A DNA stretch of 64,000 nucleotides, taken from Schmidtea polychroa. Lineage: Eukaryota. Below the pieces are notes generated by a model, which worked only from the letters and a program-made list of their open reading frames with translations, was not told the origin of the DNA and searched no databases. The translations under genes were made by a program, and so were the position numbers. Positions within the stretch are counted from its first letter, which is position 1. Every line of letters begins with the position of its first letter. Location of the stretch: NCBI GenBank assembly GCA_044892525.1, contig CM097885.1, forward strand, positions 7,814,001 through 7,878,000, written 5' to 3'. This document shows positions 874-56,295 of the stretch, piece after piece.

Positions 874-953
874 ATAAATAATACATTTTCATTCAATAAA
901 TAATTATTTAACTTTTATTAGGCAAATTTTATCTTAAATATTGTAATTCGTCT

Positions 954-3900: not shown

Positions 3901-4855
3901 TCCATAGAGCTACAAAATTCAAGCAAGCACCGATTTTTAAAAATTATATAAATAAAAATACACAGCTAAGAGCTGAAGCAAGCAGTGAACTGTACAGAGA
4001 TTTATTCAAATTGTATAATAATAGCTTGTACGGTAAATCCGTTGAAAACCTTAAGAAGAGATTAAATTTACGACTATGTAATTCCGCGAAAAATTAATTA
4101 CATATTCATCAAAACCATCATTTAGAAAAACCATCAAAATTGATGATGATCTTTTTGGTGTACATCTCAATAAGGAGTCTATATGTTTGGATAGACCCAG
4201 CTACATCGGACAATCAGTGCTGGATTTATCCAAACTAAGGATGTATCAATTACAGTACATAGAATTATCAAAATATAGGAGTCAGTTTAACTGTGATATA
4301 AATATAGTTCCGGGTGATACCGATAGTTTCTTCTTAGAGGTCAAAAATGTAAAGCTTGACGTTCTTTTGCCAGCGATGATTTCGGATGACTTGTTAGACA
4401 CCTCAAATTATGATCCCTCTCATCCTTTATATTCTAGGAGACTTGACTCAGTTATAGGAAAGTTTAAGGATGAGAGTAAGGGTGTAGGATATAGTGAGTG
4501 GGTTTTCTTGCGACCAAAGTGCTACAGTCTTTTAGGAAATAAATCTACTATGAGAGCTAAGGGCGTAAAATTACCAGGTACAGATATAAAACATCAATCT
4601 TATTTAGACTGTTACAACAACAACACAGTTATTTCTGTACCTCAGACTAGAATAGGAACCCGAAATCATCAGCTTTTTACCTTTAAAAACTCAAAGATTG
4701 CTTTAACTAATCATGATGATAAAAGAGCTTGGGTAGAGAAAAACTCTAGTTTTGCATATGGTCATTATTTAGGGGTTGATGTCATTGATAATGACGATAA
4801 TGATATTCAATCAGGAGCAGATCCCGATCTCATCAATCAACATCTACAAGATTAA
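954..4855 (+). CDS. Protein-primed family B DNA polymerase (pPolB), split by a 1-nt frameshift at ~4089-4094
   Basis: Exo I VIYADFES, Exo II FHNLRGYD, Exo III YQKLDV; polymerase motifs YIDINNLYG, KLYNNSLYGK, GDTDS and RPKCY. Endonuclease VII-like Zn insert CYLC...DHDHFTG...ACRKCN; N-terminal GSGW and DHKCF...HY region. After TAA 4095-4097 the -1 frame continues LITYSSKPSFRKTIKIDDDLFGVHLNKESICLDRPSYIG into ORF 4187-4855. Confidence 0.93.
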
Positions 4856-5229: not shown

Positions 5230-5787
5230 ATGTGTGCAGAATATAAGTATTTTCATAAATTTATTAAGAAATTACTGATGACCACGAGATCATTCAAGTT
5301 TTTAAACTGCACCGTTGAAGATTTTATGAACAATTATGATACTCTCACTGAAAAGGAAACCATAAAAATTTTAGAAATTTTCAAACATTCCTCCATTGGA
5401 TATTTGATTGATTTATTTAATTACAATAAATGCATTTTGAAGTTATCGATTTATTTGATGCATTTAGACAAAGCAATAGTAGATAATGATTCATTGAATG
5501 AATGCTTTTGGAATTGTATGGATTTAAGGCTGGAACCAGGATATAGTAGTAGATTGATTTATGAATGGATATCGAAATCCGAATTGATTGAAAATAAGCT
5601 AAGGAAAAAACTCAATGATGGTAGGAAAATGTATTTAACTTGTTACATTTGTAAAGAAAATCAAGTATCGGTTTTGTTTTTACCTTGCGGACATGTAATT
5701 GTATGTTCTAAATGCCATGATTCAAATGTTCGCAAATGTAAAGCATGTTCAATGTATATTAATGAGTATCATACTATATACATTTAA
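5230..5787 (+). CDS. C-terminal RING finger protein (IAP/MDM2-type RING, no BIR domain seen); putative E3 ligase cargo of the Polinton
   Basis: CYICKENQVSVLFLPCGHVIVCSKC...CKAC at the extreme C-terminus, followed by AATAAA overlapping the stop. The true start could be the ATG at 5278. Confidence 0.85.
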   Translation: MCAEYKYFHKFIKKLLMTTRSFKFLNCTVEDFMNNYDTLTEKETIKILEIFKHSSIGYLIDLFNYNKCILKLSIYLMHLDKAIVDNDSLNECFWNCMDLRLEPGYSSRLIYEWISKSELIENKLRKKLNDGRKMYLTCYICKENQVSVLFLPCGHVIVCSKCHDSNVRKCKACSMYINEYHTIYI

Positions 5788-6948: not shown

Positions 6949-8046
6949 CTAATAAATGGCTCCTATCATCGCCTCCTGTGATGGAGCTTCCTCGTTTGGG
7001 TATTGCATTTCGTCGTATTTCTCTTCGGCTTCGCTTGAATAATTCAGTTGATAGTTTGCATCTTGATTTCCAATTGCTGCTACCTCTCTTCTGTTATACA
7101 GATTGTTCTGTTGAAATCGGCCCCCTTTATTTCGGTGTGCTGCATTATTTCTTCCGTAATGATTCATTTTCGGCTTAAATCTTTCTAGGTTTGTATAACA
7201 TTCAGTTTCTTTGTGACCTTGTAGATGACATCTCCTACACTGAATGTTTGGACATTCTCGGCGTACGTGTCCATATAATCCACATCCAAAACACTGAATC
7301 CTCCTCTTCATAGTACATTCTCGGCTTAAATGACCTGGTTTATGGCATGTCCAGCATACGACGTTCTTAGTCGCTTCCAATGGTTTTGACATTGGCATCG
7401 TATTTGTCTGCGCGGGTCTTTGAACGGCATCTCTGTAGGTTTTGACAGGTTTCATATATGTTATAGGTCGGATGGAGTTAACATGGTTTATAGCTTTATT
7501 CACTTTCTCAACTTTTCTAATTGTGCTTTTAATTTCTTCTGACGTCTTGAGTTCTTGCATTTCTATTTCCTTTTTAACTTTTTTATCTCGAGCCCCATTC
7601 ATGAGTAGGCACTTTTTAATTTCTTCTTCGTTCCACTCATGTCGCAGTAATCTTTTGGTTAATTTCTCTACTTTTTCCATAAAGCGGTCTGCTGAATCGG
7701 ATCCTTGTTCATAATTTAGAGCTTCCTTTAAGTCTTCGAATAATGATTTTGGCCTCGAAAATGCTGATCTGAGCTTCTCTTCAAATGTTTTTCCTTCTGC
7801 TTTTTCATATTCATCGTATAATGGTTTATCCAACAGTGTGGTAACCAGAATAATCTGCATCTTGACTGATGTTTTCGTAATATTAAAAAGATTTTGGCCT
7901 TCTTTGATGAATTCTTCCAGGTCGTCGTCTCTGTGGAATCTTTCTGGTAGCAACCTGCTAATCAATAGGTTTGTTGGCGTGGTCGCCATGTTAGCCGCAA
8001 CAACGTCAAATTCATTCTCAATCTCCATAATTAATAAATTAAACAA
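6949..8046 (-). CDS. gag: LTR retrotransposon (Gypsy-like) Gag with three CCHC zinc knuckles
   Basis: CWTCHKPGHLSREC, CFGCGLYGHVRREC and CRRCHLQGHKETEC; helical capsid-like N-terminal half; frameshift signal at the 3' end. Confidence 0.9.
   Translation of the reverse strand: MFNLLIMEIENEFDVVAANMATTPTNLLISRLLPERFHRDDDLEEFIKEGQNLFNITKTSVKMQIILVTTLLDKPLYDEYEKAEGKTFEEKLRSAFSRPKSLFEDLKEALNYEQGSDSADRFMEKVEKLTKRLLRHEWNEEEIKKCLLMNGARDKKVKKEIEMQELKTSEEIKSTIRKVEKVNKAINHVNSIRPITYMKPVKTYRDAVQRPAQTNTMPMSKPLEATKNVVCWTCHKPGHLSRECTMKRRIQCFGCGLYGHVRRECPNIQCRRCHLQGHKETECYTNLERFKPKMNHYGRNNAAHRNKGGRFQQNNLYNRREVAAIGNQDANYQLNYSSEAEEKYDEMQYPNEEAPSQEAMIGAIY
6959..7000 (-). promoter_or_regulatory. Gag-pol -1 programmed ribosomal frameshift signal
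   Basis: In-frame slippery heptamer C CCA AAC (7000-6994), a 6-nt spacer, then the stem-loop GCTCCATCA...TGATAGGAGC. The -1 frame stays open to the Polinton junction at 6869. Confidence 0.8.
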
Positions 8047-8528
8047 ATAAAATTACTAAATTTATTTTTATTCACAAACTGCGCTTTTTTTGTAATATTC
8101 AAACAATCTGTTCGAGGCTTTTTTATTATTTTAATTTTGATGCTGATTTCAATGCTGGTTTAATTTATTTTAATATTTAATATATTTTTAGTTATTTTTA
8201 TATTTTAAACTTACTTTAATTTATTAATTTAAATATTTATATAAAAATTTATGTAATCTGATATATACAATTTAAATGTTTATTAGCAATATCCAGTTTT
8301 AACTTAAACGTGAATTCTACCCTTTCACATACTATGCCAATTTTACAGTTTTTTTTATCAATTTCGTTGTAAATATAGAGCAAATTGTAAATTTTTTGTT
8401 TTGTCCAGTTTGTAGATACAAAGAAACAGAAACAAAATACATAAAAACATATAAAACATACTAAAAAAAATTTTTTTTGTTACTTTTTATTGATCCATGT
8501 TAACCTCCGGTTTTAAAGGGGGAAGTTG

Positions 8529-9193
8529 TGTCATGTACAGTTATATACTTTATTTATTTCTAAACAAGGTTTTGCGACGCCTTGTTATTTTATTGAGTGT
8601 AGGTCGCAATGGAAAAAGAATAAAAAATACTATATAGCGATAATTTACTATGGTAAATTATCGCTATACAAATAAGGACAAATAAAAATTTTCAATAAAA
8701 AAATTCTGAAAAATAATTCAAAGTTAAAAATAAAGTTACAGATCCAGTTAGCTAACCAATAATTATATTTTAATTCAAGATAAAAATAAGGTAAAGATAA
8801 AATTTCAAGCTCCAATAACGAGTCAAAAATTTGGTTTTTAATACGAGAACAAAGATAAAGATAAAGTAAAGATAAAATTTCAAGATCCAAAACGAGTCAA
8901 AAATTTGTTTTTTAATACGAGGACAAAGGTAAAGTTACAGTACTCGCTATCTAACCAAGAATTATATTTCAACTCAAAGATAAAGCTAAAGTGTCAAATC
9001 TTAAGGACAAGTTAAGGATTTGCGTTGCTATACAAGGTTTTCATAATTTTTATTTGAATAAAAGTTTATGTTTGATATATATTATTGTTAATTTAGTATT
9101 TTATTTTTATATATTCTTACATACATTCACCCCAGCTGTCCCGAGACAGTTTATTTACTGGAGACTTGGCTGGGTACTACCATATTTCTTACA
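8529..9193 (+). repeat. LTR-like segment preceded by a polypurine tract
   Basis: AAAGGGGGAAG (8515-8525) directly precedes TGT...; the segment ends TTCTTACA at 9193. It has internal ~75-bp tandem repeats (8790-8930) and AATAAA at ~9057. No second copy in the window. Confidence 0.5.
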
Positions 9194-10559
9194 GCATTCA
9201 CGAACATAAATACAAACATAATATATATAGCATAATACATATAATATAAGACAAATATAACACGCACACAACAAAGGAACCTCCTAACAAATACTATTAA
9301 GAAGATTATTATTTGAATTAATAAAATTTAATTACAACTTGACTTTTAATTATGGATACAATAAATACGACAAGCAATGTAGCTAATAAGCCAATTTGAT
9401 AAATTTGACTGTATATCCAGTGAATATTGCATAAATCTGAGTTAATTTTAACAAATATTATTGAATATTCTACCAAAGTAGTAATTGTAAAATTAATTAA
9501 GATTTAAAAGTAGTTATTTATGAACGTATATCCAATGCAAAAAAAAGTTTTTATTAAAAAATATTTATGAAGGATTTAATATTGAAAAAAATGTCACAAA
9601 AAGAATAAAATTCATTTTTCTTTTACAGCAGTCAAGTGAAGAGGTTTCTTTATAAAAGAAAGACATCGGTTTAAAAAAGTGAGTTGTGAAATTTTTTCCT
9701 TAAAAAGATCTGAAAGGAAATAATTAAATTAATCCGTCGGCTTCTCTCTAATTTTCAATAAATATTGATAGAGAAAATTTTAATTTCTATGCCAATTTAA
9801 CCGGGCTTTGTGATTTTCAGAGACAAATGAAAACATTAAATGATACGGAAGACATTTAAATGAAAATTGCGATTAGAATAATCGCCAACTATAAGAAATG
9901 ACAACCAAAGAAAAATTACTTTGAAGTTTTTCATTGGAAATTTATCGCGAAAAAAATAAATTGTTAATAAAAATATAGAAAACATAATTTTTTTTAAATA
10001 GGCTTTTTAAACAAGATAAAATACATAATTTAAAATATTCGTTTACAAATTTTCTAGGATAAATTCTAAAAGATTTATTCATTCCCATATTCTGATAGCA
10101 TTCAAACAAAATAGGAACTAATAATAAAAAATCTTTTGTAAAATTTGAGAAACAACCAACAAAAGGAAAATATTCCACAAATGTTTTTTATGTCATTTAA
10201 AAAATATTTTATACAGACAACACAAAGGTGAAATTTCACAACAAAGGTGAAATGGGGTGGAGCGATTGAAGCACTTGTCTTAAATCATAAAATGTAAATG
10301 TAAAAGTTTAAAATAATAATAACAGTAGGTAGATAGTAGCGCACGGCAGCAATGACCCCCCCCCCCCCCGGGGGGGGGTCTGCTGCCGTAATTTTTTTGC
10401 TGCAACTTTTGATTACGCAATTTTTCAGACTATAGTGAAGGGGTCTCGATGGTCCTGGGATTTTCAATACAAAAAAAATTTTTCAATACAAAAACGATGG
10501 TCCTGAGAATTTCAATAGAAAAAGGTGGTCTACACTAAAAAAGCGTGGTAAATTTTTAA

Positions 10560-11260
10560 AATAAAGTAAATAATGGGTCTAAAAATTAAATTACAGTAAA
10601 TTATGGTTCAAACTTTTGAATTACAGTAAATAATGGTCCAAATTTTTGAATTACAGTAAATAATGGTTCTAAAAAATTAAATTACAGTAAATAATGGTCC
10701 AAATTTTTCAATTACAGTTAATTATGGTTCTAAAAAAATTAAATTAAAGTAAATTAAGGTTCAATTTTTTCAATTAAAGTAAATTATGGTCCAAATTTTT
10801 GAATTACAGTAAATAATGGTCCAAATTTTTGAATTACAGTAAATAATGGTTCTAAAAATTGAATTACAGTAAATTATGGTTCTAAAAAATTAAATTACAG
10901 TAAATTATGGTTCTTAAAAATTAAATTACAGTAAATAATGGTCCAAATTTTTCAATTACAGTAAATTATGGGCTAAGATTTTTAAATTAAAGTAAATAAT
11001 AGTCCTAAAAATTAAATTAAAGTAAATTATGGTCTAAATAAGTAAATTAAGGTTCTAAAAATTAAATTACAGTAAATATTGGTCCAAATTTTTCAATTAC
11101 AGTTAATTATGGTTCTAAAAATTTATATTAAAGTAAATTAAGGTTCAAATTTTTCAATTAAAGTAAATAATGGTCCAAATTTTTGAATTAAAGTTAATTA
11201 AGGTCCAAATTTTAAAATTAAGTAATCAATGGTCAAAAATTTTAAATTAAAGTTAAATAA
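10560..11260 (+). repeat. Subterminal ~30-bp tandem array (AATTACAGTAAATAATGGTCCAAATTTTTG-like), mirrored at ~24150-24885
   Basis: About 20 degenerate units are visible. Unit order and number differ between the two arms. Confidence 0.85.
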
Positions 11261-11569
11261 GTAAATTAAAGTAATAATTTTTAAATAAGTAATGTAATAA
11301 GTAAATTAAAGTAAGATTTTAAAATTTATTAACAAAAAGTTGAAATAATAGAAGGTGTTTGAGAATTGAAATTTTTTAATGAAAATTTTTATGAAATAAT
11401 TTTTTAAGTAATTTTTAATAGAAATTTTTATGGAATAATTTTTTAAGTTAATTTTTAATGGAAATTTTTATGAAATATTTTTCAATGATAATTTTAGATG
11501 GAAATTTTTAGGATAATTTTTAATGAAAATTTCTATGAAATATTTTTCAAAGACAAATTTTAATAATAA

Positions 11570-12610
11570 TTCAACAACAAACCAACAACTTAGTACCAAC
11601 AACCAGTAACTTATGAACATGTATTAACAATCAGATACCTACAACTAGTTACTAACAACCTGCTACCAAGTACTTACAATCAGTTACCTGCTACCAAATA
11701 CTTTCAACATGATACCACGTACTAAATAACTCTCAAACAACCAGATACTTACAACCAATTACCAGATACCAAGTACCTACAACTAGTTACTAACAACTAG
11801 TTACCTGATACTAAGTACCTACAACCATCTAACAAGTACTAACAACCAAAAACAAGCAACCAACTAGGTACCAAGTACTAACAACCGACAACAACCAGCT
11901 AACAACTAACTACAACCTACCAAGTACCTACAACCACATACTAACAACTAGTTACCAGATACCAACTACTCACAGACGTCAACAACCAGGTACTAAGCAT
12001 TATTAACCAACTACTAAGTACCAACAATAACTAACTACCAACTACTAAGTACCTACAACCACCTACCTATTAACTAGCTACAACCACCTACCAACTAGCT
12101 ACCACCTACCCATTAACTAGTTACAACCAGCTAACTAGGTACTAGATACCAAGTACTAACAACCAGTTACTTGCTACTAAGTACCAACAACCACCTACCA
12201 AGTACATACAACCAACATCAACCAGGTACTAAGCATTAATTACCAACAACTAAGTACCTACAATCACCTACCCATTAACTAGTTACTAAGTACTATCAAC
12301 CAACTAGGTACTAGATACCAAGTACTAACAACCAACAACAACCAGGTACTAATCATTAATTACCAATTACTAAGTACCTACAACCATCTACCAAGTACAT
12401 ACAACCAAGTACTAAGCATTATTAACCAACTACTAAGTACCTACAACCGACTAGCTACCACCTACCAAGTACCACCAACAACGAGATACCTACAACTAGA
12501 TACTAACAACTAGTTACCAGATACCTACTACTCACAGCCGTCAACAACCAGGTACTAAGCATCATCAACCAAGTAATAACAACTAGATACCTAGTACTTA
12601 CAACCAGATG
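11570..12610 (+). repeat. G-poor, C/A-rich degenerate repeat block (ACAACC/TACCAAGTAC motifs), mirrored at ~22795-23835
   Basis: Strong strand asymmetry, recurrent motifs, frequent stop codons and no ORF in the track. Confidence 0.8.
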
Positions 12611-13137
12611 ACCACATGAAATTATTGGTTAAATAAGTAAATTAATGTCTAATTTTTAAATTAAGTAATCAATGGTCTAAAATATTAAAGTTAAAGTTAA
12701 TTTAAGATGAAGATTTTCTGGGATTTCCAATGTTAATTTTAGATGCAAATCTTCGTCAATTAATCAATGACCACATGAAATTATTAGTTAAATATGAAAA
12801 TAAGGGTTATAATTAGTTGTTTAGTAAATTATGGTGTACAATTAAGAAATAAAGAATAATTAGGTAAATTAAGGATAAATTAAGGAAATTAAGGTTCAAA
12901 ATTTAAAATTAATTAACCAATGGTTCAAATTTTAAATTAAAGCTAAATAAGTAAATTAAAGTAAGATTTTTAAATTTATTATCAAAAGATTGAATAACCA
13001 CCAACTTTTTTGAGAAATGTAATTTTTAATGAAAATTTAAATGGAAATTTTTTTTTAAGTTAATTTTAAATGTAAAATTTTTTAAGTTAATTTTTATGGA
13101 ATAATTTTTTAAGTAATTTTTAATGGAAATTTTAATG

Positions 13138-13183
<46 letters not shown>

Positions 13184-13624
13184 TCAACAGTTCCCAACAA
13201 TCGGTTACTAAATATTTTTAACTAGATGCTAACAAATACTTTGAACATGATACCACGTACTAACTAACTCTCAAACAACCAGATACCTACAACTAGTTAC
13301 TAACAACCAACTAAGTATTCTTTATTGTATTTTATGAAATGCTTTTAAATTAATTTTTTATCTGTCTTTAAAAATATGTTTAATTACAATCAATAGAAAA
13401 CCTTTTCAAAATATCTAAATTTAACAAACATGTTGACTTTCATCAAAAAACCACAACTCAATCACTTTAAAACACCACGTGAAATTCAAAATAATTTAAA
13501 TTACAATGAAATACTAATGAATTATAATTTACAAAAACATCTTCTTTTAAATGATAACTACTGACTTATTATTGCAAAGTAAAAATCACATTCAATAAAT
13601 ACTTATTGTTGATCAGTTTTATTA

Positions 13625-16600
13625 TATATACTCTGAGTTTATCCGACAGGATGTTTTGACCCCCTAAGGGTACTGGTCGTAAGGGTACTGGTCGTAAGGG
13701 TATTAGTCGTAAAGGTACTGGTCGTAAGGCTATTGGTAACACTCAACCACCACCTACTCATTAATTAACTACCATGTACTAACAACCAGGTCTCAAACAA
13801 CTAAATACTAAACACTTACAACCCACAACAACCAGCTACTAAGCATTATCAACCTACAACTATATAACAACACTGTACCAGCTACCAAATACAAGATACC
13901 AAGTACCAACAATCAACTAACCACACATAAAAATAATAGCAATTAAATACAAAATATTCTTCATCACATACACTATCTTCTTATCAAAATCTAAAAAGTC
14001 AATCAGATACCAACTACCAACTACCAAGTACTAACAACCAACTACCTACAACCAACAACTATGTACTAACAAATTGATCTTTAAAAGAAAAATACTCATC
14101 ACTTGAAAAATTAGATGGAAAATTAATTGAACTCAAGACATCAATAACTTGGTAAAAATTGATTAAATAATTGCAAAAATTTAAATTTACTCAAAATAAA
14201 TATCATAAAAATTTAATTAATAGACAAGAAAGAATTCTATTCATTAATCATCCAGTAAATAAAAAAATACTGATCATTCAAGTTGAATCGACTAAGATAA
14301 TAAATTAATAAGATAAGATTTAGTAGATAATTGATTTAGATTGAATGAATTAATTGAAATAAAATTAATTTTAATTATTTTTTTTAAAAATAATACATGT
14401 ACTCAAATTGATTGACTGAATGCTCAAAATATTCAAAAATCAGTATAAATTCATTAAAATTATCAATGTCATCAATCTACAATAAAAATAATTATCATTA
14501 AATTCCAAAAGAGACTAGAAAACTAACAAACCAGAAAATTCATTCAAATGACAATAATTGGTATATTCAAGCGAATTCTCTAATAAAATCATCTAAAAAG
14601 AATCATTTCGCCTGAAATATCTCTATTTTTAAAGATTAGTATCTTATCGATAAGTACTTGTTAAATATCATATATTCACCTCAAACTAACAAGATTCCTT
14701 AAAATCCCTTAAATGACTATATTTCTACCCTTAATCAATATTATTACAAATAATTCAATAAAATCATCTAAAAAGCATCAAATTTCCCCAAAAATAACTC
14801 TATCTTTAAAGATTAGTATTTTATCGATAAATATCCTTAAAAGGTTATATATTTACCTCAGACTAATAAGATTCCTTAAAATCCCCTTTAAATGACTATA
14901 ATTCTAACTTTAATTCGTATTATCACAAATATTTCCCTATAAAACAGGTAAAATCATTAACTCTAAATAATTTATAAAATCTAATGATAAAACCGGTTAT
15001 AATAAAATTTTTGTTAATCACTGTACTCGAAATTTAAAATAAATATTGCTTGAAATTTGACTGTACAATATAACTGAGTAGTTGCATAGAAAGATTAAAT
15101 TTATCCATATTTCTTCAAATGATCATTTTTACCGATATCCAACCGATTTAATTACTAATTAAAATCACCCGATAGATTTCTCCCAATAAAGATCAATTTT
15201 CTTTAGTCGACGTTTTAAATCAATATTTCCAACTTTTGTCGTTGTCCGTCTAAATAAAGATAAAAAATAATTTAAAGTTGATATCAATCCCAATTATCTG
15301 TAAAGTTTTCATTGTCAAAACCAAGTAAATAGATTATCCCTACTTAATAAAACATTGTTCTAAAACATAAATCTAAATTAATTTACTGTGCATTAATCAC
15401 AACCTAATAAAACAATATAATTATTATTGATTCATAACTAATGTATTGCAATTTCCCTTAAAACATTGATATTTTGCCAACATCACCATTAAAAAAATCA
15501 TATATTCCCATCTTAACCCATCCTTAATTAAATTTAACCAACTATATCCCCTCAAAAGATCATATTTTCCCACCTTATTCGATCCCTCATTAAATCTAAC
15601 CGACAATATCCCATCTTAACCGATCTCTCACCAAATATTTCTACCCTTTTAAACATCTAACCAAATATATCCTTCAATTCTACCCACTTGAATCCTCCTT
15701 TAATTCAATTCAGTCTTAAAATCCTTAGAGAGAATTCTTCAAAAAATATGACTTTTAATTAACTGTTAAAGACACCAGACATTCTTCTATTGAAATAATT
15801 TAGTAGCTAAATAATAAGAGCCCACTAAAAGGTCAAAATTCACTAAAATTTTCTACAAATATTCACCATCAAATACCTAACTGGAGATGATACATATATT
15901 AATTGATGATAATTCTTCAGCTATTCAACCAATCATTTTCAAGCAGTAACAGCAAACTAAATTTCTGTATATCCTACAATAATTATCAAGTAAATTTAAA
16001 GTCCTTGATAAGGTTAACTGTTTCTTAGCTTATGTTTTTTAAAGTTCATCAAAGTGTAAATATTCTTAGAAAAATATTGAAAAATTATTTATTCAAATAC
16101 ATTACAAAGTTATCATCAAAAATCACTTAATTATTAACCTAATTGTCAATGAAATTAATTTTTATTTAAAAACTATTCAATAAAATACAACTAATTATCA
16201 AGAAATTAATTAAATTTATCAATTAAATTTATCAGTCAACATGAAATTCTTAGAAAATTATTCAATATCCACATAAAAATTTATCCACTTGATTATTGTA
16301 AAAACTCTAATTATTAACATTGAAAATAAATTTTATTTAACATTAAAAAACCAATCAATAAAAATACATTCAATTATCAAGAAATTAATTAAATTTACCT
16401 TAGAATTAGCATTAAATTACAGAAATTCACAAAAATAATGGAAATTCACAAAAATGATAAAAATTCACAAAAATAATAGAAATTCATGAAAATGATAGAT
16501 ATCCACGAAAAATTACGGAAATTCATGAAAATATTAGAAATTCACAAAAAATGATGGAAATTCATGAAAATGATAGAAATTTACTTGAATAAAACCATCA

Positions 16601-16776
16601 ACTCTAAAAATTATCAATGCCTTAAACAACAAATTTGTCTAAATAATCATTCAAATAAAAGCATTAAATACCTTTACGACTAATACACTTACGACATGTT
16701 GAATGTGAGTAGTACCCTTTGTGAGCAATACCCATAGGGGGACAGAATATTTTGTCGGATAAACTCAGAGTATATA
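13625..16776. mobile_element. Possible nested TA-flanked TIR element (ends TATATACTCTGAGTTTATCCGACA... / ...TGTCGGATAAACTCAGAGTATATA); mirror copy 18632-21783
   Basis: Two copies of the same ~45-bp motif plus 15-30-bp subrepeats face each other as inverted repeats, bounded by TATATA. Confidence 0.5.
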
Positions 16777-19700
16777 TTAATTAACTCATTCAAATTTATC
16801 ATTGAATCAGTAAAATTATCATAAATTTCGATAAAAATTCTAATGTGGTAAGCAATGAAAAGAGAAATATTCTTTAAACTTAGATAAAACTAACAATGAA
16901 GGTGGTAAGAATCATTAAAGTGAGAAAATTATTCATTACTCGATGATAAATTCAAATGGATGAAAATAATTGGTAGAATAATTTATTAATGGGCATAGAT
17001 AAGAAAAAAGGTTGATAAGAATGGAAATATATTAATTGAATTTATTTAAAATTATTTCATAAAATTCATAAAAAAAACTTTTAAAAGAAATATTTGTGGA
17101 GATGTTTTAGGTGAAAATTAATCAAAATCGGCGGAATATAATTGATTAAATATCGAGGATGGGGGTTATAATTAATGGAAAATCAATGGGATACAAATGA
17201 TTAAATAGTGGAAAATCCGGGAATATAAGTGATTAATTAATGGAATATTGAGAATCGGAGGAATATCAATGAGAAGGATATATAATTTAAACTAGTTTAT
17301 TACATAACAAGCCGCGACTAGTTTATTACATAACAAGCCGTGAATGATAATTTATTGAGAATTATTGATTAGATCTTTTTTTTTTAATTTTTGACTAAAA
17401 TAAATTCTAAAATAATAGCAAATTATTACTAAAATGTTTTAATTTGAATTATGTATTTCATAAACAATTATCATAAAAGAAAATAATATATATATTACCC
17501 TTTTCATTCAAAATAAGTTAAATATTCAAATATAAGTCTTAGAAAATACAATCAAAATTAAATTTTAAAAATATAAATTTTATAAGTTTTTCAAATTCTC
17601 GAATAAAGTAAATAAGAAATTAATCTATTACCAGTTACATACTTTTAAACTTATTGATGGAATAAAACATTAAAAATAAAAAGTGTTTTTTTGTATAAGT
17701 ACTTGTAATAATAGCTATATATTATTAAATTTACTATTCTACACTAAATATTTCGAAAACAAATATCATAATATGAATTATATTACTCCTTTCAATCAAA
17801 GTAAATTAAATGTATCATTCAAATACAATTAAAATTAAATCATCAATTTAATACTTTAATTTAAAAATAAAAATTTTATAAGTAAATGTAAATAAGTGTA
17901 TTAACAGTTCTAAACTTTTTAAACTTATTGATTAGGCAGTAGAAGCTAACTTTTTTTTCAAAAAGTCCTTTAACATTGTATTCTATTTATTATCAAATTA
18001 ACTATTTTACACTAAAATATTTCAATTTAGAAAAAAAAAATCATCATAATATTGAATGTGATACTTCAATCAAAATAAGTTAATACTCAAATATATGTCT
18101 TATAAAGTACAATCAAAATTAAATACTTCACTTCTCATTGATATTCCTCCGATTCTCAATATTCCATTAATTAATCACTTATATTCCCGGATTTTCCACT
18201 ATTTAATCATTTGTATCCCATTGATTTTCCATTAATTATAACCCCCATCCTCGATATTTAATCAATTATATTCCGCCGATTTTGATTAATTTTCACCTAA
18301 AACATCTCCACAAATATTTCTTTTAAAAGTTTTTTTTTATGAATTTTATGAAATAATTTTAAATAAATTCAATTAATATATTTCCATTCTTATCAACCTT
18401 TTTTCTTATCTATGCCCATTAATAAATTATTCTACCAATTATTTTCATCCATTTGAATTCATCATCGAGTAATGAATAATTTTCTCACTTTAATGATTCT
18501 TACCACCTTCATTGTTAGTTTTATCTAAGTTTAAAGAATATTTCTCTTTTCATTGCTTACCACATTAGAATTTTTATCGAAATTTATGATAATTTTACTG
18601 ATTCAATGATAAATTTGAATGAGTTAATTAATATATACTCTGAGTTTATCCGAAAAAATATTCTGTCCCCCTATGGGTATTGCTCACAAGGGTACTACTC
18701 ACATTCAACATGTCGTAAGTGTATTAGTCGTAAAGGTATTTAATGCTTTTATTTGAATGATTATTTAGACAAATTTGTTGTTTAAGGCATTGATAATTTT
18801 TAGAGTTGATGGTTTTATTCAAGTAAATTTCTATCATTTTCATGAATTTCCATCATTTTTTGTGAATTTCTAATATTTTCATGAATTTCCGTAATTTTTC
18901 GTGGATATCTATCATTTTCATGAATTTCTATTATTTTTGTGAATTTTTATCATTTTTGTGAATTTCCATTATTTTTGTGAATTTCTGTAATTTAATGCTA
19001 ATTCTAAGGTAAATTTAATTAATTTCTTGATAATTGAATGTATTTTTATTGATTGGTTTTTTAATGTTAAATAAAATTTATTTTCAATGTTAATAATTAG
19101 AGTTTTTACAATAATCAAGTGGATAAATTTTTATGTGGATATTGAATAATTTTCTAAGAATTTCATGTTGACTGATAAATTTAATTGATAAATTTAATTA
19201 ATTTCTTGATAATTAGTTGTATTTTATTGAATAGTTTTTAAATAAAAATTAATTTCATTGACAATTAGGTTAATAATTAAGTGATTTTTGATGATAACTT
19301 TGTAATGTATTTGAATAAATAATTTTTCAATATTTTTCTAAGAATATTTACACTTTGATGAACTTTAAAAAACATAAGCTAAGAAACAGTTAACCTTATC
19401 AAGGACTTTAAATTTACTTGATAATTATTGTAGGATATACAGAAATTTAGTTTGCTGTTACTGCTTGAAAATGATTGGTTGAATAGCTGAAGAATTATCA
19501 TCAATTAATATATGTATCATCTCCAGTTAGGTATTTGATGGTGAATATTTGTAGAAAATTTTAGTGAATTTTGACCTTTTAGTGGGCTCTTATTATTTAG
19601 CTACTAAATTATTTCAATAGAAGAATGTCTGGTGTCTTTAACAGTTAATTAAAAGTCATATTTTTTGAAGAATTCTCTCTAAGGATTTTAAGACTGAATT

Positions 19701-22223
19701 GAATTAAAGGAGGATTCAAGTGGGTAGAATTGAAGGATATATTTGGTTAGATGTTTAAAAGGGTAGAAATATTTGGTGAGAGATCGGTTAAGATGGGATA
19801 TTGTCGGTTAGATTTAATGAGGGATCGAATAAGGTGGGAAAATATGATCTTTTGAGGGGATATAGTTGGTTAAATTTAATTAAGGATGGGTTAAGATGGG
19901 AATATATGATTTTTTTAATGGTGATGTTGGCAAAATATCAATGTTTTAAGGGAAATTGCAATACATTAGTTATGAATCAATAATAATTATATTGTTTTAT
20001 TAGGTTGTGATTAATGCACAGTAAATTAATTTAGATTTATGTTTTAGAACAATGTTTTATTAAGTAGGGATAATCTATTTACTTGGTTTTGACAATGAAA
20101 ACTTTACAGATAATTGGGATTGATATCAACTTTAAATTATTTTTTATCTTTATTTAGACGGACAACGACAAAAGTTGGAAATATTGATTTAAAACGTCGA
20201 CTAAAGAAAATTGATCTTTATTGGGAGAAATCTATCGGGTGATTTTAATTAGTAATTAAATCGGTTGGATATCGGTAAAAATGATCATTTGAAGAAATAT
20301 GGATAAATTTAATCTTTCTATGCAACTACTCAGTTATATTGTACAGTCAAATTTCAAGCAATATTTATTTTAAATTTCGAGTACAGTGATTAACAAAAAT
20401 TTTATTATAACCGGTTTTATCATTAGATTTTATAAATTATTTAGAGTTAATGATTTTACCTGTTTTATAGGGAAATATTTGTGATAATACGAATTAAAGT
20501 TAGAATTATAGTCATTTAAAGGGGATTTTAAGGAATCTTATTAGTCTGAGGTAAATATATAACCTTTTAAGGATATTTATCGATAAAATACTAATCTTTA
20601 AAGATAGAGTTATTTTTGGGGAAATTTGATGCTTTTTAGATGATTTTATTGAATTATTTGTAATAATATTGATTAAGGGTAGAAATATAGTCATTTAAGG
20701 GATTTTAAGGAATCTTGTTAGTTTGAGGTGAATATATGATATTTAACAAGTACTTATCGATAAGATACTAATCTTTAAAAATAGAGATATTTCAGGCGAA
20801 ATGATTCTTTTTAGATGATTTTATTAGAGAATTCGCTTGAATATACCAATTATTGTCATTTGAATGAATTTTCTGGTTTGTTAGTTTTCTAGTCTCTTTT
20901 GGAATTTAATGATAATTATTTTTATTGTAGATTGATGACATTGATAATTTTAATGAATTTATACTGATTTTTGAATATTTTGAGCATTCAGTCAATCAAT
21001 TTGAGTACATGTATTATTTTTAAAAAAAATAATTAAAATTAATTTTATTTCAATTAATTCATTCAATCTAAATCAATTATCTACTAAATCTTATCTTATT
21101 AATTTATTATCTTAGTCGATTCAACTTGAATGATCAGTATTTTTTTATTTACTGGATGATTAATGAATAGAATTCTTTCTTGTCTATTAATTAAATTTTT
21201 ATGATATTTATTTTGAGTAAATTTAAATTTTTGCAATTATTTAATCAATTTTTACCAAGTTATTGATGTCTTGAGTTCAATTAATTTTCCATCTAATTTT
21301 TCAAGTGATGAGTATTTTTCTTTTAAAGATCAATTTGTTAGTACATAGTTGTTGGTTGTAGGTAGTTGGTTGTTAGTACTTGGTAGTTGGTAGTTGGTAT
21401 CTGATTGACTTTTTAGATTTTGATAAGAAGATAGTGTATGTGATGAAGAATATTTTGTATTTAATTGCTATTATTTTTATGTGTGGTTAGTTGATTGTTG
21501 GTACTTGGTATCTTGTATTTGGTAGCTGGTACAGTGTTGTTATATAGTTGTAGGTTGATAATGCTTAGTAGCTGGTTGTTGTGGGTTGTAAGTGTTTAGT
21601 ATTTAGTTGTTTGAGACCTGGTTGTTAGTACATGGTAGTTAATTAATGAGTAGGTGGTGGTTGAGTGTTACCAATAGCCTTACGACCAGTACCTTTACGA
21701 CTAATACCCTTACGACCAGTACCCTTACGACCAGTACCCTTAGGGGGTCAAAACATCCTGTCGGATAAACTCAGAGTATATATAATAAAACTGATCAACA
21801 ATAAGTATTTATTGAATGTGATTTTTACTTTGCAATAATAAGTCAGTAGTTATCATTTAAAAGAAGATGTTTTTGTAAATTATAATTCATTAGTATTTCA
21901 TTGTAATTTAAATTATTTTGAATTTCACGTGGTGTTTTAAAGTGATTGAGTTGTGGTTTTTTGATGAAAGTCAACATGTTTGTTAAATTTAGATATTTTG
22001 AAAAGGTTTTCTATTGATTGTAATTAAACATATTTTTAAAGACAGATAAAAAATTAATTTAAAAGCATTTCATAAAATACAATAAAGAATACTTAGTTGG
22101 TTGTTAGTAACTAGTTGTAGGTATCTGGTTGTTTGAGAGTTAGTTAGTACGTGGTATCATGTTCAAAGTATTTGTTAGCATCTAGTTAAAAATATTTAGT
22201 AACCGATTGTTGGGAACTGTTGA

Positions 22224-22266
<43 letters not shown>

Positions 22267-25200
22267 CATTAAAATTTCCATTAAAAATTACTTAAAAAAT
22301 TATTCCATAAAAATTAACTTAAAAAATTTTACATTTAAAATTAACTTAAAAAAAAATTTCCATTTAAATTTTCATTAAAAATTACATTTCTCAAAAAAGT
22401 TGGTGGTTATTCAATCTTTTGATAATAAATTTAAAAATCTTACTTTAATTTACTTATTTAGCTTTAATTTAAAATTTGAACCATTGGTTAATTAATTTTA
22501 AATTTTGAACCTTAATTTCCTTAATTTATCCTTAATTTACCTAATTATTCTTTATTTCTTAATTGTACACCATAATTTACTAAACAACTAATTATAACCC
22601 TTATTTTCATATTTAACTAATAATTTCATGTGGTCATTGATTAATTGACGAAGATTTGCATCTAAAATTAACATTGGAAATCCCAGAAAATCTTCATCTT
22701 AAATTAACTTTAACTTTAATATTTTAGACCATTGATTACTTAATTTAAAAATTAGACATTAATTTACTTATTTAACCAATAATTTCATGTGGTCATCTGG
22801 TTGTAAGTACTAGGTATCTAGTTGTTATTACTTGGTTGATGATGCTTAGTACCTGGTTGTTGACGGCTGTGAGTAGTAGGTATCTGGTAACTAGTTGTTA
22901 GTATCTAGTTGTAGGTATCTCGTTGTTGGTGGTACTTGGTAGGTGGTAGCTAGTCGGTTGTAGGTACTTAGTAGTTGGTTAATAATGCTTAGTACTTGGT
23001 TGTATGTACTTGGTAGATGGTTGTAGGTACTTAGTAATTGGTAATTAATGATTAGTACCTGGTTGTTGTTGGTTGTTAGTACTTGGTATCTAGTACCTAG
23101 TTGGTTGATAGTACTTAGTAACTAGTTAATGGGTAGGTGATTGTAGGTACTTAGTTGTTGGTAATTAATGCTTAGTACCTGGTTGATGTTGGTTGTATGT
23201 ACTTGGTAGGTGGTTGTTGGTACTTAGTAGCAGGTAACTGGTTGTTAGTACTTGGTATCTAGTACCTAGTTAGCTGGTTGTAACTAGTTAATGGGTAGGT
23301 GGTAGCTAGTTGGTAGGTGGTTGTAGCTAGTTAATAGGTAGGTGGTTGTAGGTACTTAGTAGTTGGTAGTTAGTTATTGTTGGTACTTAGTAGTTGGTTA
23401 ATAATGCTTAGTACCTGGTTGTTGACGTCTGTGAGTAGTTGGTATCTGGTAACTAGTTGTTAGTATGTGGTTGTAGGTACTTGGTAGGTTGTAGTTAGTT
23501 GTTAGCTGGTTGTTGTCGGTTGTTAGTACTTGGTACCTAGTTGGTTGCTTGTTTTTGGTTGTTAGTACTTGTTAGATGGTTGTAGGTACTTAGTATCAGG
23601 TAACTAGTTGTTAGTAACTAGTTGTAGGTACTTGGTATCTGGTAATTGGTTGTAAGTATCTGGTTGTTTGAGAGTTATTTAGTACGTGGTATCATGTTGA
23701 AAGTATTTGGTAGCAGGTAACTGATTGTAAGTACTTGGTAGCAGGTTGTTAGTAACTAGTTGTAGGTATCTGATTGTTAATACATGTTCATAAGTTACTG
23801 GTTGTTGGTACTAAGTTGTTGGTTTGTTGTTGAATTATTATTAAAATTTGTCTTTGAAAAATATTTCATAGAAATTTTCATTAAAAATTATCTTAAAAAT
23901 TTCCATCTAAAATTATCATTGAAAAATATTTCATAAAAATTTCCATTAAAAATTAACTTAAAAAATTATTCCATAAAAATTTCTATTAAAAATTACTTAA
24001 AAAATTATTTCATAAAAATTTTCATTAAAAAATTTCAATTCTCAAACACCTTCTATTATTTCAACTTTTTGTTAATAAATTTTAAAATCTTACTTTAATT
24101 TACTTATTACATTACTTATTTAAAAATTATTACTTTAATTTACTTATTTAACTTTAATTTAAAATTTTTGACCATTGATTACTTAATTTTAAAATTTGGA
24201 CCTTAATTAACTTTAATTTAATTTTTTAGAACCTTAATTTAGTTATTTGAGCCCATTCATTACTTTAAATTTAAAATTTGAACCATAATTTACTTTAATT
24301 CAAAAATTTGGACCATTATTTACTTTAATTGAAAAATTTGAACCTTAATTTACTTTAATTTAATTTTTAGAACCATAATTTACTGTAATTCAAAAATTTG
24401 AGCCATAATTTACTGTAATTTAATTTTTTAGGACCATTATTTACTTTAATTTAATTTTTTAGAACCATAATTTACTGTAATTCAAAAATTTGGACCATTA
24501 TTTACTGTAATTTAATTTTTAAGAACCATAATTTACTGTAATTTAATTTTTTAGAACCATAATTTAATGTAATTAAAAAAATTTGGACCATTATTTACTT
24601 TAATTGAAAAATTTGGACCATTATTTACTGTAATTTAATTTTTTAGGACCATTATTTACTTTAATTTAATTTTTTAGAACCATAATTTACTGTAATTCAA
24701 AAATTTGGACCATTATTTACTGTAATTTAATTTTTAAGAACCATAATTTACTGTAATTTTATTTTTTAGAACCATAATTTAATGTAATTGAAAAATTTGG
24801 ACCATTATTTACTTTAATTTAATTTTTAGAACCATAATTTACTTTAATTTTTAGAACCATAATTTACTGTAATTGAAAAAATTTACCACGCTTTTTTAGT
24901 GTAGACCACCTTTTTCTCAGGACCAAGGAGACCCACCTTAATTGAACTAAAAAAATCCATGCTTTTTTATTGATAATCGGATTTTTGTATTGAAAATATC
25001 TTGAGACCTTAAATTGCCACTCTTTTTTTAGTGTAGACCACCTTTTTCTATTGAAAATATCCTGAGACCTTAAATTACCATGCTTTTTTATTGATAGTCG
25101 GATTTTCTATTGAAAAAATTTTATTTGTATTGAAAATCCCCGGACCATCGAGACCCCCTCACTATAGTGTGAAAATTCCATGCTTTTTTAGTGGTAGTCG

Positions 25201-25730
25201 GATTTTTGTATAGAAAAAATTTTATTTGTATTGAAAATCCCAGGACCATCGTTTTTGTATAGAAAAAATTTTTTTGTATTGAAAATTCCAGGACCATCGT
25301 TTTTGTATTGAAAAAATTTTTTGTATTGAAAATCCCAGGACCATCGTTTTTGTATAGAAAAAATTTTTTGTATTGAAAATTCCAGGACCATCGTTTTTGT
25401 ATTGAAAAAATTTTTTTGTATTGAAAATCCCAGGACCATCGAGACCCCCTCACTATAGTCTGAAAAATTGCGTAATCAAAAGTTGCAGCAAAAAAATTAC
25501 GGCAGCAGAACCCCCCCCCCCCGGGGGGGGTCATTGCTGCCGTGCCCTACTATCTACCTACTAATAACATTCCATTATTATCAAATAATAACAATTTTAT
25601 AATGTTCTTTTAAGTTTTAATAGAAAACACGAAAACGCCAGATAAATGAAATATATTTCAAGGAAATTATCTTCATCATCAGTTTGCCATCATAATGTAT
25701 GTCAGCATTTATATATGGAAACAATAATGA

Positions 25731-26362
25731 TGTAATATTTATGATTTAATGATTTAATTAAGAAATTTCAATAAATTTGTTTCCGATTTAATGTTTATTG
25801 CATGGGATTGTAATTTAGTCAATAATAACTTATATAAAGTTCAGAAATTATAATGGGAGTTTAATAAGGTATTCATATGAAAAGTTAATGCGGAAAAGCA
25901 AATTAATTAAAATTAATTAATCTGTAATGGAAAGCCCGAGCGCTGAAGGAAACCCTATGTGCAGTGAGACCCGAGCGATCAGATAAACAAATTAAAATAA
26001 TTTGGAAACCCTCAAATGTTTTCCTAGGATTCCCGGGAAATAATTAATTACCCCCTCATAAATAGTATAAAAACAGAGCTCAGAAACAAAGAGAAGCTCA
26101 GAGAATCAGGCCCTCAGTGATCAGAAAACGAAATATAGTAATTCGAAAAAAGTTTAATCCTCGTACCATAAAAGGTGTTTGCCCCTTGGGTTATCCACCT
26201 TATCGAGTGATAATTATATTGAGCGAAAGGTACAAATATAATGACAAATTGTAATTAGATTGAAATTGAATAAAGCTATTCTGTGTTGGGTTTCTAGTTA
26301 TTTGTTTGAATAACGACACGAGGAGTCGGAGAGAGAACCGACTTAAAAAATAAAACCCAACA
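25731..26362 (+). repeat. Solo-LTR-like segment
   Basis: TGTAAT start, TATAAAA at ~26066, AATAAA at ~26269, 3' hairpin TGTTGGGTTT/AAACCCAACA ending in CA. No TSD found, so the boundaries are uncertain. Confidence 0.35.
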
Positions 26363-51417: not shown

Positions 51418-52075
51418 TTACATGTATATAGTATGATATTCATTAATCAGTATTAAACAGGCTTGACGATTGCGAACATTCTTCTCGTGACACTAAGAAC
51501 AAACAATTACGTGACCACACGGTAAATACAAAACCGAAACTTGATTTTCTTTACAAATTGAACAAGTTAAATACCTTTTCTTAACATCGTTCAGTTTTTC
51601 CGTTAGCTTATTTTCAATCAAGTCGGCTTTTGCTATCCATTCATAAATCAATCTACTATATCCCGTTTTCAACCTTAAATATATGCAACTCCAAAAGTAT
51701 TCATTCAGTGAATCGTTGTTTACCACTGTTTTTTCTAAATACATTAAATAACTAGATAACTTCAAAATGCATTTATCATAATTAAATAAATCAATCAAAT
51801 ATTCAATAGAGGAATGTTTGAAAATTTTTAAAATATTTATGATTTGCTTATCACTGTAAGTATCATGATTATTTATAAAATCTTCAACTGTGTTGTTGAA
51901 AAATTTCAATGAACGCTTATCTTCGGAATAGGTTGGACTTAATATTTCATTATTTCTAGTAGGATGTCCTTGCTATAAATGACATATATAAAAAATATTG
52001 ACAAAATAATAAAGTTACCAAATGTGTTTTGTGATTTACACATTCATATTCAACAGTTTTACTTGTAGAAATCAT
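51418..52075 (-). pseudogene. Spliced homolog of the 5230-5787 RING gene with a premature stop (exons 52075-52019 and 51972-51418)
   Basis: Clear protein similarity (IFKHSSI.YLIDLFNY.KCILKLS.YLM; CSICKENQVSVLYLPCGHVIVCS). TAG at 51495-51493, then the frame continues CHEKNVRNRQACLILINEYHTIYM* with one RING Cys changed to Arg. A 46-nt GT-AG intron (52018-51973) joins MISTSKTVEYECVNHKTHL in frame. Confidence 0.85.
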
Positions 52076-55619: not shown

Positions 55620-56295
55620 AATATTTTAGACCATAAATAACTTTAATTCAATTTTTAGACCCATAATTTACTGTAATTGAAAAATCTGAGCCCATAATTT
55701 AATTAAATTTTTAGACCCATCATTTACTTTAATTCAAAAATCTGAGCCCATAATTTGCTGTAATTCATTTTTAGACCCTTAATTTACTTAATTTCAAAAA
55801 TTTACCACGCTTTTTAGTGTGGACCACCTTTTTCTATAGGATTATCAGGACCAAGAAGACTCACCTTAATTTACTTTAAATATTCTATGCTTTTTTAGTG
55901 ATAATCAGATTTTTGTATTGAAAATATCATGGGACCTTAAATTACCACTGTTTTTTAGTGTAGACCACCTTCTTCTATTGAATATATCCTGAGACCTTAA
56001 TTTACCATGCTTTTTTATTGAAGACCGCCATTTTGTATTGAAAATTCCAGGACCATCGAGAGCCCCTCACTATAGTCTGAATAATCCATGCTTTTTTATT
56101 GAAGACCACCTTTTTGTATTTAAAAAAATTTTTGTATTGAAAATCCCAGGACCATGGAGACCCCCTCACTATAGTCTGAAAAAAAAATATTTTGTACTAA
56201 AAATCCTTGAAAGCAAAGAAAGTGAGTTGCCCCATTTGCGTAATCAAAATTTGCCTCAGAATTTGATTGCGGCAGGGGGACACTAACTACCTACT
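55620..56295. mobile_element. Right-terminal fragment of the 10324-25562 element family
   Basis: Same ~30-bp CCATAATTTACTGTAATT array and CAGGACCATCGAG...CCCTCACTATAGTCTGA motifs; terminus ...CTACCTACT at 56295. Confidence 0.8.

Follow-up and report, generated by a model that had tools for sequence, protein, structure and literature searches.

The transposable element W lies at positions 10324-25562 of a 64,000-nt stretch of the Schmidtea polychroa genome (hereafter the window; assembly GCA_044892525.1, contig CM097885.1, here called C1, positions 7,814,001-7,878,000 of the forward strand; ~25% G+C). The explanation that best fits our data, to which we give a probability of roughly four in five, is that W belongs to a high-copy family of gene-less, palindromic and non-autonomous Maverick/Polinton relatives, which carry the cis ends of a coding helper, are inserted by means of that helper, go back to an early and single foldback origin and have arms that evolve in concert. 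According to this reading, a retrovirus-type integrase supplied in trans by the coding copies would have inserted W, and a protein-primed polymerase, which the many uninterrupted coding copies would likewise provide in trans, probably replicated it. The foldback form would have arisen once, earlier, and then multiplied as such, as suggested by a centre that is shared between copies. The founding event was probably a copy-back from the polymerase-side end of the helper, to judge by a rearranged copy found elsewhere in the genome (locus D). The arms would be made alike by re-templating or repair of a self-annealed single strand during strand-displacement replication, or by gene conversion.

W starts with the 16-nt tip AGTAGGTAGATAGTAG, which contains four TAG reiterations, at 10324-10339 (plus strand) and ends with the reverse complement of this tip at 25547-25562 (minus strand), giving AGT...ACT termini. 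An exact 6-bp target-site duplication (TSD), AATAAC, abuts both tips (left copy at 10318-10323, right copy at 25563-25568). The left arm of 6953 nt (10324-17276, plus strand) and the right arm of 7432 nt (18131-25562, minus strand) are inverted around a central spacer of 854 nt (17277-18130) and together make up 94% of the element. The repeat finder gave 100% complementarity over 3578 nt (13142-16719 against 18688-22265) and 99% over the next block (11154-13180 against 22224-24250); the innermost pair is 17070-17276 and 18131-18337, with the 854 nt between them. In a global alignment of the left arm with the reverse-complemented right arm, the inner ~5950 nt differ by 4 substitutions and 3 small indels. 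The outer ~1 kb consists of tandem arrays and is non-collinear, with 85 apparent substitutions and 11 indels, one of them of 454 nt. These arrays occupy 10424-11260 on the left (plus strand; 47-nt units followed by 30/61-nt units; 72-85% identity to the ends of coding copies) and 24146-25441 on the right (minus strand), where 30-nt units lie at 24146-24880, 61-nt units at 24957-25116 and five 47-nt units at 25203-25441, and where the 454-nt excess over the left side is found.

Three stop-to-stop open reading frames (ORFs) of at least 80 aa in the standard code are present in W, all within the right tandem arrays at 24864-25546, and no ORF of this length lies outside the arrays. When the helper ORFs were compared with W by tblastn, only pseudo-ORFs of the repeat arrays were matched, and there was no match to a protein-primed polymerase (pPolB). 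The ciliate code (table 6) was also tried for hidden ORFs and was found to be uninformative, as frames are open everywhere in DNA of 25% GC. A search of Rfam at E <= 1 with window positions 10000-26000 and eight loci of further copies (E1 and E3-E6, described below) gave two chance-level matches only (P9, E 0.52; U6atac, E 0.17) and none to SRP RNA. A first-pass annotation of the window had described the AGT...ACT termini, the AATAAC duplication, the two arm lengths and the 854-bp spacer, near-perfect arms with unequal subterminal arrays, and a lack of coding capacity, and all of these are found as it gave them.

The genome searched comprises 781 Mb in 1012 contigs, and C1, which holds the window, is 271.6 Mb long. 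In the window, the 16-nt tip at up to 3 mismatches has 9 matches against 0.22 expected. Genome-wide, at up to one mismatch, it has 1764 forward and 1784 reverse matches, 3548 in all, against 16 (13 + 3) for a control pattern. In each genome-wide search only 34-40 candidates were scored, and the copy numbers given here are lower bounds or extrapolations. Our sample consists of the first 100 tip places, equivalent to the first 43.6 Mb of C1, and contains 29 plus/minus pairs up to 22 kb apart and 7 more at distances of 27-36 kb; 28 tips are without a partner. Eight of the 29 close pairs were read whole and proved to be five foldbacks (W and E3-E6), two coding copies (E2 and E7) and one chimera (E1). 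E2 is 16.6 kb long with terminal inverted repeats (TIRs) of 1109 nt at 96.5% identity, and E7 is 19.2 kb long. The gene-less foldbacks E3, E4 and E5 have arms that are 96.6%, 95.8% and 97.3% alike; E6 (C1:13845020-13862548) has exact tips, a perfect TSD (AGTGTA) and arms that are ~81-83% alike and may come from different subfamilies. For the other 21 pairs the tips, the flanks and a 600-nt midpoint were read. All 21 midpoints were of the foldback type (12 centre/spacer, 9 arm), and helper coding sequence was matched by none of them. In this sample the gene-less type accounts for about nine in ten tip pairs, which gives a palindromic lineage of at least hundreds of copies and, by extrapolation from the sample, more than 1000.

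The coding partner can be described from E2 and E7. Both have a Pox_A32-type packaging ATPase (29.2 bits, cut-off 22.8) and an rve integrase (35.5 bits, cut-off 32.6), which is also matched by PHROG transposases; a chromodomain downstream of the integrase is weak (21.5 bits, below the cut-off of 25.1). In sequence searches of Pfam, PHROGs and the PDB, a further ORF of both copies (1359-1374 aa) shows only a weak endonuclease VII motif. The 1374-aa ORF has 727 homologues, mollusc proteins included. PF03175 is present in many of them, and the name of one reads 'DNA polymerase type B, organellar and viral/Recombination endonuclease VII'. Because its homologues carry PF03175, this ORF is identified as the protein-primed polymerase, pPolB. 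The 34 scored genome matches to it all read through without interruption, as frames of 1365-1423 aa at 98-99% identity; the helper family is young and numerous. Several helper ORFs of 120-410 aa had no Pfam or PHROG match, and capsid and protease genes were not identified by these searches. E7 has ~3.4 kb that are absent from E2, including a 364-aa ORF with a hAT dimerisation domain (E 1.7e-11); this extra block is a hAT-type transposon nested in the Maverick, and apart from its ORF no transposase was seen inside the copies.

W shares its ends with this partner. The 16-nt tip is identical on W, E2 and E7, and the outer 1.2-1.7 kb of each side of W match the helper ends at 72-85%. The longest match is between positions 13523-15239 in W's own numbering and E2 14991-16575, at 77%. 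This part of E2 comprises all of the non-coding end that follows the polymerase gene, which stops at E2 14836, and it reaches past the 1109-nt TIR. Since the outer ends of W match this end of E2, both W arms start with the polymerase-side end. The helper cis ends found on both sides of W comprise the 16-nt tip, a C/G palindrome, the 47-nt and 30-nt arrays and ~1.7 kb of the polymerase-side end. Of the genes by which a Polinton is recognized, pPolB is missing from W and present in the partner copy E2, and the rve integrase is missing from W and present in E7 and E2.

The C/G palindrome is located 20-70 nt from every one of 72 tips. On the left of W it occupies 10343-10389, with the structure ACGGCAGCA-ATGA-C14G9-TC-TGCTGCCGT, and on the right it lies at 25499-25543, with the same stem version and other C/G tract lengths. 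At least six self-complementary stem versions exist among the 72 tips: GGCAGCA/TGCTGCC, GGGAACAA/TTGTTCCC, TGCAACAA/TTGTTGCA, TGGAACAATT/AATTGTTCCA, TGCCGCA/TGCGGCA and TGCAGCA/TGCTGCA. The stem encloses a core of C(n)G(n) or G(n)TAC(n), and the core is not of constant length, either from copy to copy or at the two ends of a single copy.

Insertion was followed in 32 tip pairs with both flanks readable (seven read by eye, the 21 midpoint-probed pairs, E5-E7 and D). The flanking hexamers are identical at 6/6 positions in 25 of the 32 pairs, at 5/6 in four and at 2/6 in three, where the chance of a 6/6 match calculated from the base composition is ~0.001. The duplicated hexamers of the 32 pairs have no evident consensus. 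Among the 21 midpoint-probed pairs, 15 lie in distinct flanks with a perfect TSD. With exact duplications in 25 of 32 pairs, the 6-bp TSD is a trait of the family. The first-pass annotation had read W as a non-autonomous satellite of Polintons and had suggested a search for an autonomous pPolB/integrase partner with the same tips. Its reading is borne out by the shared tips, the ~1.7 kb of shared end sequence and the 6-bp TSD: the genome-wide tip search (3548 matches against 16 for the control) led to other copies that do have 6-bp TSDs and to E2 and E7 as partners with the same tips, and the termini do not come from an unrelated DDE-transposase family. Perfect TSDs, relatives at 98-99% and a probable element-free allele would all be consistent with mobilisation of the foldbacks in trans by helper proteins.

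The left flank of W is unique in the assembly. In the right flank a ~225-nt interspersed repeat begins 47-53 nt past the junction; two adjoining copies of it lie at window 25602-26050, and it has ~2000 first-look candidates in the genome at 77-89% identity. The reads at W are short-read contigs only, which are unable to show absence of the filled allele. In a run of a second organism the arrays of W have almost no cover, to which no meaning is attached. In all three runs of the first organism (two studies), the single left-flank contig departs from the element at 10322-10324 and runs on for 96-104 letters that are unlike the element. In one run, 734 letters of left flank are identical to the window, and the ends of the three contigs fit the start of the ~225-nt repeat of the right flank. 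An allele without W probably exists, which would mean recent mobility.

The remaining ~5.5 kb of each W arm and the spacer show no similarity to the helper (blastn at E 1e-10, tblastn at E 1e-3). At this sensitivity we rejected the idea that this module consists of decayed helper genes. The module is common to all foldbacks at 72-83% identity, and its composition in the direction from tip to centre (A.43, C.17, G.09, T.31) is alike in all subfamilies. Within it a G-poor and CA-rich block (A.42, C.29, G.08, T.21) lies at 11560-12613 on the plus strand, with its mirror at ~22791-23844. The strands of the arms are asymmetric (window 11560-17276 and its mirror; arms of E3-E5), with a GC skew down to -0.44. 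An explanation of this asymmetry as a deamination footprint of the displaced strand was dropped, as its direction is opposite to the prediction.

The centre of the foldbacks is also a family property. An alignment of the centres of W, E3, E5 and E6 gives 82-89% identity, and in all four the boundary between arm and spacer falls at the same 26-nt tandem repeat (ACTAGTTTATTACATAACAAGCCGCG), with which the W spacer starts; on its right side this spacer is ~170 nt shorter than those of its relatives. The W spacer has full or near-full genome matches at 91-97% (40 scored of 1270 first-look candidates), and a 2.5-kb inner-arm probe found relatives at 96-99%, mostly as inverted pairs (40 scored of 5739 candidates). 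Because W, E3, E5 and E6 have the same arm/spacer boundary, the foldback form is inherited and was multiplied later. W is a recent copy of an already palindromic lineage and not a fresh snap-back.

Two rearranged copies can be indicative of how such forms arise. Locus D (C1:186706800-186726300) was spotted from two polymerase matches that stand head to head, 6.5 kb apart. The element measures 18.1 kb, its tips depart from the standard 16-mer by one mismatch and its TSD is perfect (TATTCA); it has 7.5-kb arms at 96.2%, two 1415-aa polymerase frames and a 2.7-kb unique loop. Its path can be followed on E2 from 16575 to 5933 and, after a strand switch, from 8679 to 16575, with a single junction that shows AT microhomology and has no second copy among the 40 candidates scored out of 1465. 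An inverted duplication of one parental end by a single switch, which defines a copy-back, is exactly what D contains, and D is a clean copy-back of the helper polymerase end that was later integrated. In W, by the same definition, only the outer ~1.7 kb of each arm are parental and the switch is ancestral to the family. The copy-back origin that had been proposed for W in the first-pass annotation is therefore not upheld for W itself, with so little parental sequence and a family-wide centre, and it does hold for the family, where TSD-flanked D provides an example. E1 (C1:4717073-4732320) has one foldback arm and ~650 nt of spacer joined to the left half of the helper at E2 position 7442, inside a perfect TSD (TTTATA). 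Its junction is unique among 40 scored of 1277 candidates, and it is a one-off foldback/helper chimera, probably made by an intermolecular switch. E1 was considered as the progenitor of the foldbacks and was rejected, given the unique junction and a homology that ends inside the spacer. Template switching on replicating linear genomes before integration would most simply account for both D and E1.

One of the questions raised by these structures is how the two arms of a copy stay alike. We aligned 2.5 kb of both arms of W and its four closest relatives. Within one element the two arms show 0, 1, 1, 4 and 1 differences per 2.5 kb, against 5-26 from one element to another. Among the 31 ungapped columns that vary, 24 have a mirrored state in the two arms throughout the five elements, and in the other 7 a single arm has changed; some of the mirrored variants are private to one element and some are common to groups. 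On a wider scale, the arms within an element are 96-100% alike and the subfamilies are 17-28% apart. This shows that the two arms evolve in concert, and mirrored variants together with arm identity within elements require a homogenising step. The step may be repair or re-templating in a self-annealed single strand, for which the adenovirus panhandle is a known analogue, or equally gene conversion from arm to arm in the chromosome.

If chromosomal gene conversion alone made the arms alike, as it does in large genomic palindromes, the life cycle of the element would be irrelevant to this last step of our explanation and arm identity would carry no information on replication; the earlier steps would stay as they are. 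Mirrored substitutions are its expected outcome. Non-collinear outer arrays would resist conversion, which fits the sharp step between the inner arms, at 0.07% divergence, and the scrambled arrays outside them. On the other hand, informative mirrored variants are common to copies at different loci (patterns such as GGAAGGAAAA), which requires homogenisation before transposition in the source lineages, and the arms of E6 are unconverted. The data do not separate conversion from repair in a hairpin intermediate, and we regard conversion as the sole process as possible and rather unlikely.

Several observations weigh against a helper-driven family with a foldback origin and re-templated arms, or limit it. 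Three tip pairs have no TSD. Two of the pairs without TSD, P38 (C1:35791844-35801664) and P44 (C1:39330587-39344901), have flanking 20-mers that are exact reverse complements, and here the palindrome extends beyond the element tips, unlike in W; these loci are either assembly artefacts or real inverted duplications of element and flank. The element-free allele of W is deduced from the position of the break and the length of the run-on, and not from a comparison of the run-on letters with the right flank. As the ~5.5-kb module has no helper similarity, a reconstruction of the founding event is out of reach. No foldback has the same outer arrays at its two ends, which speaks against an obligatory perfect copy-back in each round, and the non-collinear outer ~1 kb of the W arms speaks against a simple self-templated copy-back in each cycle. 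In some copies even the palindrome versions at the two ends are unlike (L062 and L064, L074 and L076, L113 and L115). The arms of E6 are ~18% apart despite perfect tips and TSD, and thus arms need not be alike at insertion. Finally, mobilisation in trans is predicted from the sequence, and an extrachromosomal form and packaging are hypothetical.

An extension of our explanation is that the foldbacks are defective-interfering satellites of a Maverick virus. In such a system a half-length, gene-less replicon would be kept as an inverted dimer, ~16 kb would be the size that is packaged or replicated best, the arms would be re-templated or repaired in each round through a hairpin intermediate of protein-primed replication, and the copies would damp the helper by competing with it. 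The sizes offer a hint of this kind: the foldbacks whose midpoint is of the centre type are 14.3-17.5 kb long (mean 16.1 kb, n=15), near the 16.6 kb of the coding copy E2, which suggests a size rule for what is propagated. Derivatives of 8-12.4 kb with perfect TSDs are also present and limit this hint. We consider the satellite model doubtful. If it is true, arm divergence would date insertions in the way that divergence of long terminal repeats does, and the W-type copies, D and E1 would be the first sequence record of extrachromosomal, template-switching Maverick replication in an animal. With regard to size, the tips of three pairs are separated by 33.2-33.5 kb, about double the 16.6-kb helper, and enclose no further tip (C1:2877368-2910893, 25662891-25696050 and 25758942-25792374). 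TSDs were read for two of the seven long pairs (L004/L005 and L010/L011). One of the three pairs has a perfect TSD (L010/L011, TTTATA), and they may be larger dimers or composite elements.

Another option is that each foldback is made afresh, from a single-armed progenitor of the order end-module-centre that snaps back at inverted 26-nt repeats flanking the spacer. The arms would then be identical at birth with no later homogenisation, and the shared centre would be a hotspot and not the trace of a single origin. The coincidence of the arm boundary with the 26-nt tandem motif, which is inverted across the spacer in E3, E5 and E6, fits this option, and so does the copy-back seen in the family at locus D. 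Mirrored lineage-specific substitutions would be expected from it, and some inner-arm probe matches appear unpaired, as single-armed copies would; these unpaired matches may only reflect the 40 scored candidates. No lineage of single-armed progenitors was found among the copies read and the candidates scored, and the only single-armed copy read, E1, is a one-off chimera with a unique junction (40 scored of 1277). The outer arrays are also unlike at the two ends of each foldback, and the E6 arms are ~18% apart inside a perfect TSD. We judge fresh formation to be improbable, and an inherited foldback form fits these data better.

It can also be asked whether the palindrome is an assembly artefact, in which a chimeric palindromic read (hairpin adapter read-through or a strand switch) has turned a one-armed locus into a foldback. 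The read evidence at W comes from short-read contigs only, the contigs of the three runs do not enter W from the left flank, and the palindromes of P38 and P44 run into reverse-complementary flanks, as those of artefacts would. W itself, however, lies between flanks that do not mirror each other and that hold the 6-bp duplication in direct orientation. Its left flank occurs once in the assembly, the arms differ by the 454-nt array indel and other changes, and the centre is a conserved family spacer of 0.85-1.05 kb and no arbitrary point. At least 12 of the 21 midpoint-probed pairs are of the centre type and 15 of the 21 have a perfect TSD in distinct flanks. A read-through artefact, against which the first-pass annotation had also argued, is very improbable for a direct TSD in non-mirror flanks and a family centre seen in many copies with different flanks, and we keep to W as a true palindromic insertion.

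Classical foldbacks use P- or Mutator-type cut-and-paste DDE transposases and have other TSD lengths. The partner of W, unlike theirs, is an integrase/pPolB element, and its TSD is 6 bp. Foldback transposons have been described as Galileo of the P superfamily (PMC3573991), Tetris (PMC4079207) and Tm1 (PMC3169594), and with these, in the extracts used here, and with Drosophila FB, W shares very long repetitive inverted arms, little or no coding sequence and a high copy number. That W is an unrelated cut-and-paste foldback (FB/Galileo-like, a MULE-foldback or similar) which resembles Polinton ends by chance is hardly credible: long, internally repetitive inverted arms without genes are the classical hallmark of that group in the same extracts (PMC3573991, PMC3169594, PMC4079207), but the tip, palindrome, arrays and ~1.7 kb of end are common to copies with pPolB, rve integrase and A32 ATPase, the TSD is 6 bp in 25 of 32 pairs, E1 and D join foldback-type and helper sequence inside single TSD-flanked units, and the only other transposase inside copies is the nested hAT-like ORF of E7.

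A Maverick/Polinton relative is in line with the tips of W, AG(T)...(A)CT (AGTAGG...CCTACT), with its 6-bp TSD and with ends common to pPolB/integrase/ATPase copies. Mavericks/Polintons were reportedly recognized as self-synthesising virus-like transposons by Kapitonov and Jurka in 2006 and by Pritham et al. in 2007. They are assumed to be adenovirus-like in replication, with protein priming and strand displacement, and to be viruses. To our knowledge, direct evidence for the replication mode of Mavericks in animals is scarce. Intact vertebrate Mavericks, in the portion of the source used here, are 12.7-24.6 kb long (mean 16.9 kb) with TIRs of 46-1447 bp, 6-bp TSDs and a 5'-(AGT)2//(ACT)2-3' motif (Barreat and Katzourakis 2021, PMC8097293). 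The foldback mean of 16.1 kb is close to that mean, but W is gene-less, and its arms of 6.95 and 7.43 kb are 5 times the longest TIR reported there. By a definition quoted from another source, all Polintons encode a protein-primed DNA polymerase and an integrase (PMC5499653), and by this wording W is not a Polinton proper. Its interior, unlike that of Polintons, is a non-coding module unrelated to the helper.

The DNA of incomplete adenovirus particles is said to contain long inverted repetitions, and symmetrical minichromosomes are reported as well (by Daniell in 1976, Daniell and Mullenbach in 1978 and Hu et al. in 1992). With adenovirus the family would share a protein-primed, related replicator. 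Snap-back and copy-back defective viral genomes are defined in PMC13506859. In the terms of the excerpt used here, the likeness lies in one end that is duplicated in inverted form around a unique loop and in the need for helper replication proteins, and D fits exactly. The S. polychroa elements differ from such genomes in being integrated with TSDs and in their very high copy number, the W-type arms are mostly of non-helper origin, and the elements are known here from their letters only. Butterfly Polintons have ~2-kb TIRs that hold hexon and adenain genes and, according to the part of the preprint drawn on here, show growth of the TIR inward by inverted duplication of one end (10.1101/2025.02.07.637071); they differ from W in being still coding, with TIRs of ~2 kb against gene-less arms of 7 kb. 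In a literature search that covered sources other than Repbase reports and subscription journals, we found no paper linking Polintons/Mavericks with copy-back or snap-back genomes and no description of gene-less palindromic Maverick derivatives. What is new here is the identity of the helper, the TSD statistics, the shared centre, the concerted arms and the TSD-flanked rearranged genomes D and E1.

D, E1 and the palindromic lineage are TSD-flanked products that are hard to make except by template switching on a replicating linear genome. An extrachromosomal replicative phase, defective-interfering satellites and a size rule of propagation can now be tested. As about nine in ten sampled tip pairs are gene-less, counts of Mavericks that are based on proteins miss most of the DNA of this family. 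Genome assembly, too, is put at risk by 7-kb arms that are 99.9% identical.

Other parts of the window contain sequences of related interest. At 912-4855 there are ORFs of 1061 and 257 aa that share the weak endonuclease VII motif of the helper polymerase and have only 67% nucleotide identity to the polymerase region of E2; this is a second, divergent Maverick lineage beside W. At 48421-49246 and 55619-56295 a fragment of the W-type module (64-73%) is found with a TIR-like fragment that has a degenerate tip, AGTAGGTAGTTAGTGT, with 3 mismatches. Intron-free ORFs are located at 5230-5787, 51493-51972 and 6949-8052 (minus strand), with RING-finger domains (zf-C3HC4_3, E 4.7e-10 and 8.3e-07) and one CCHC zinc knuckle.

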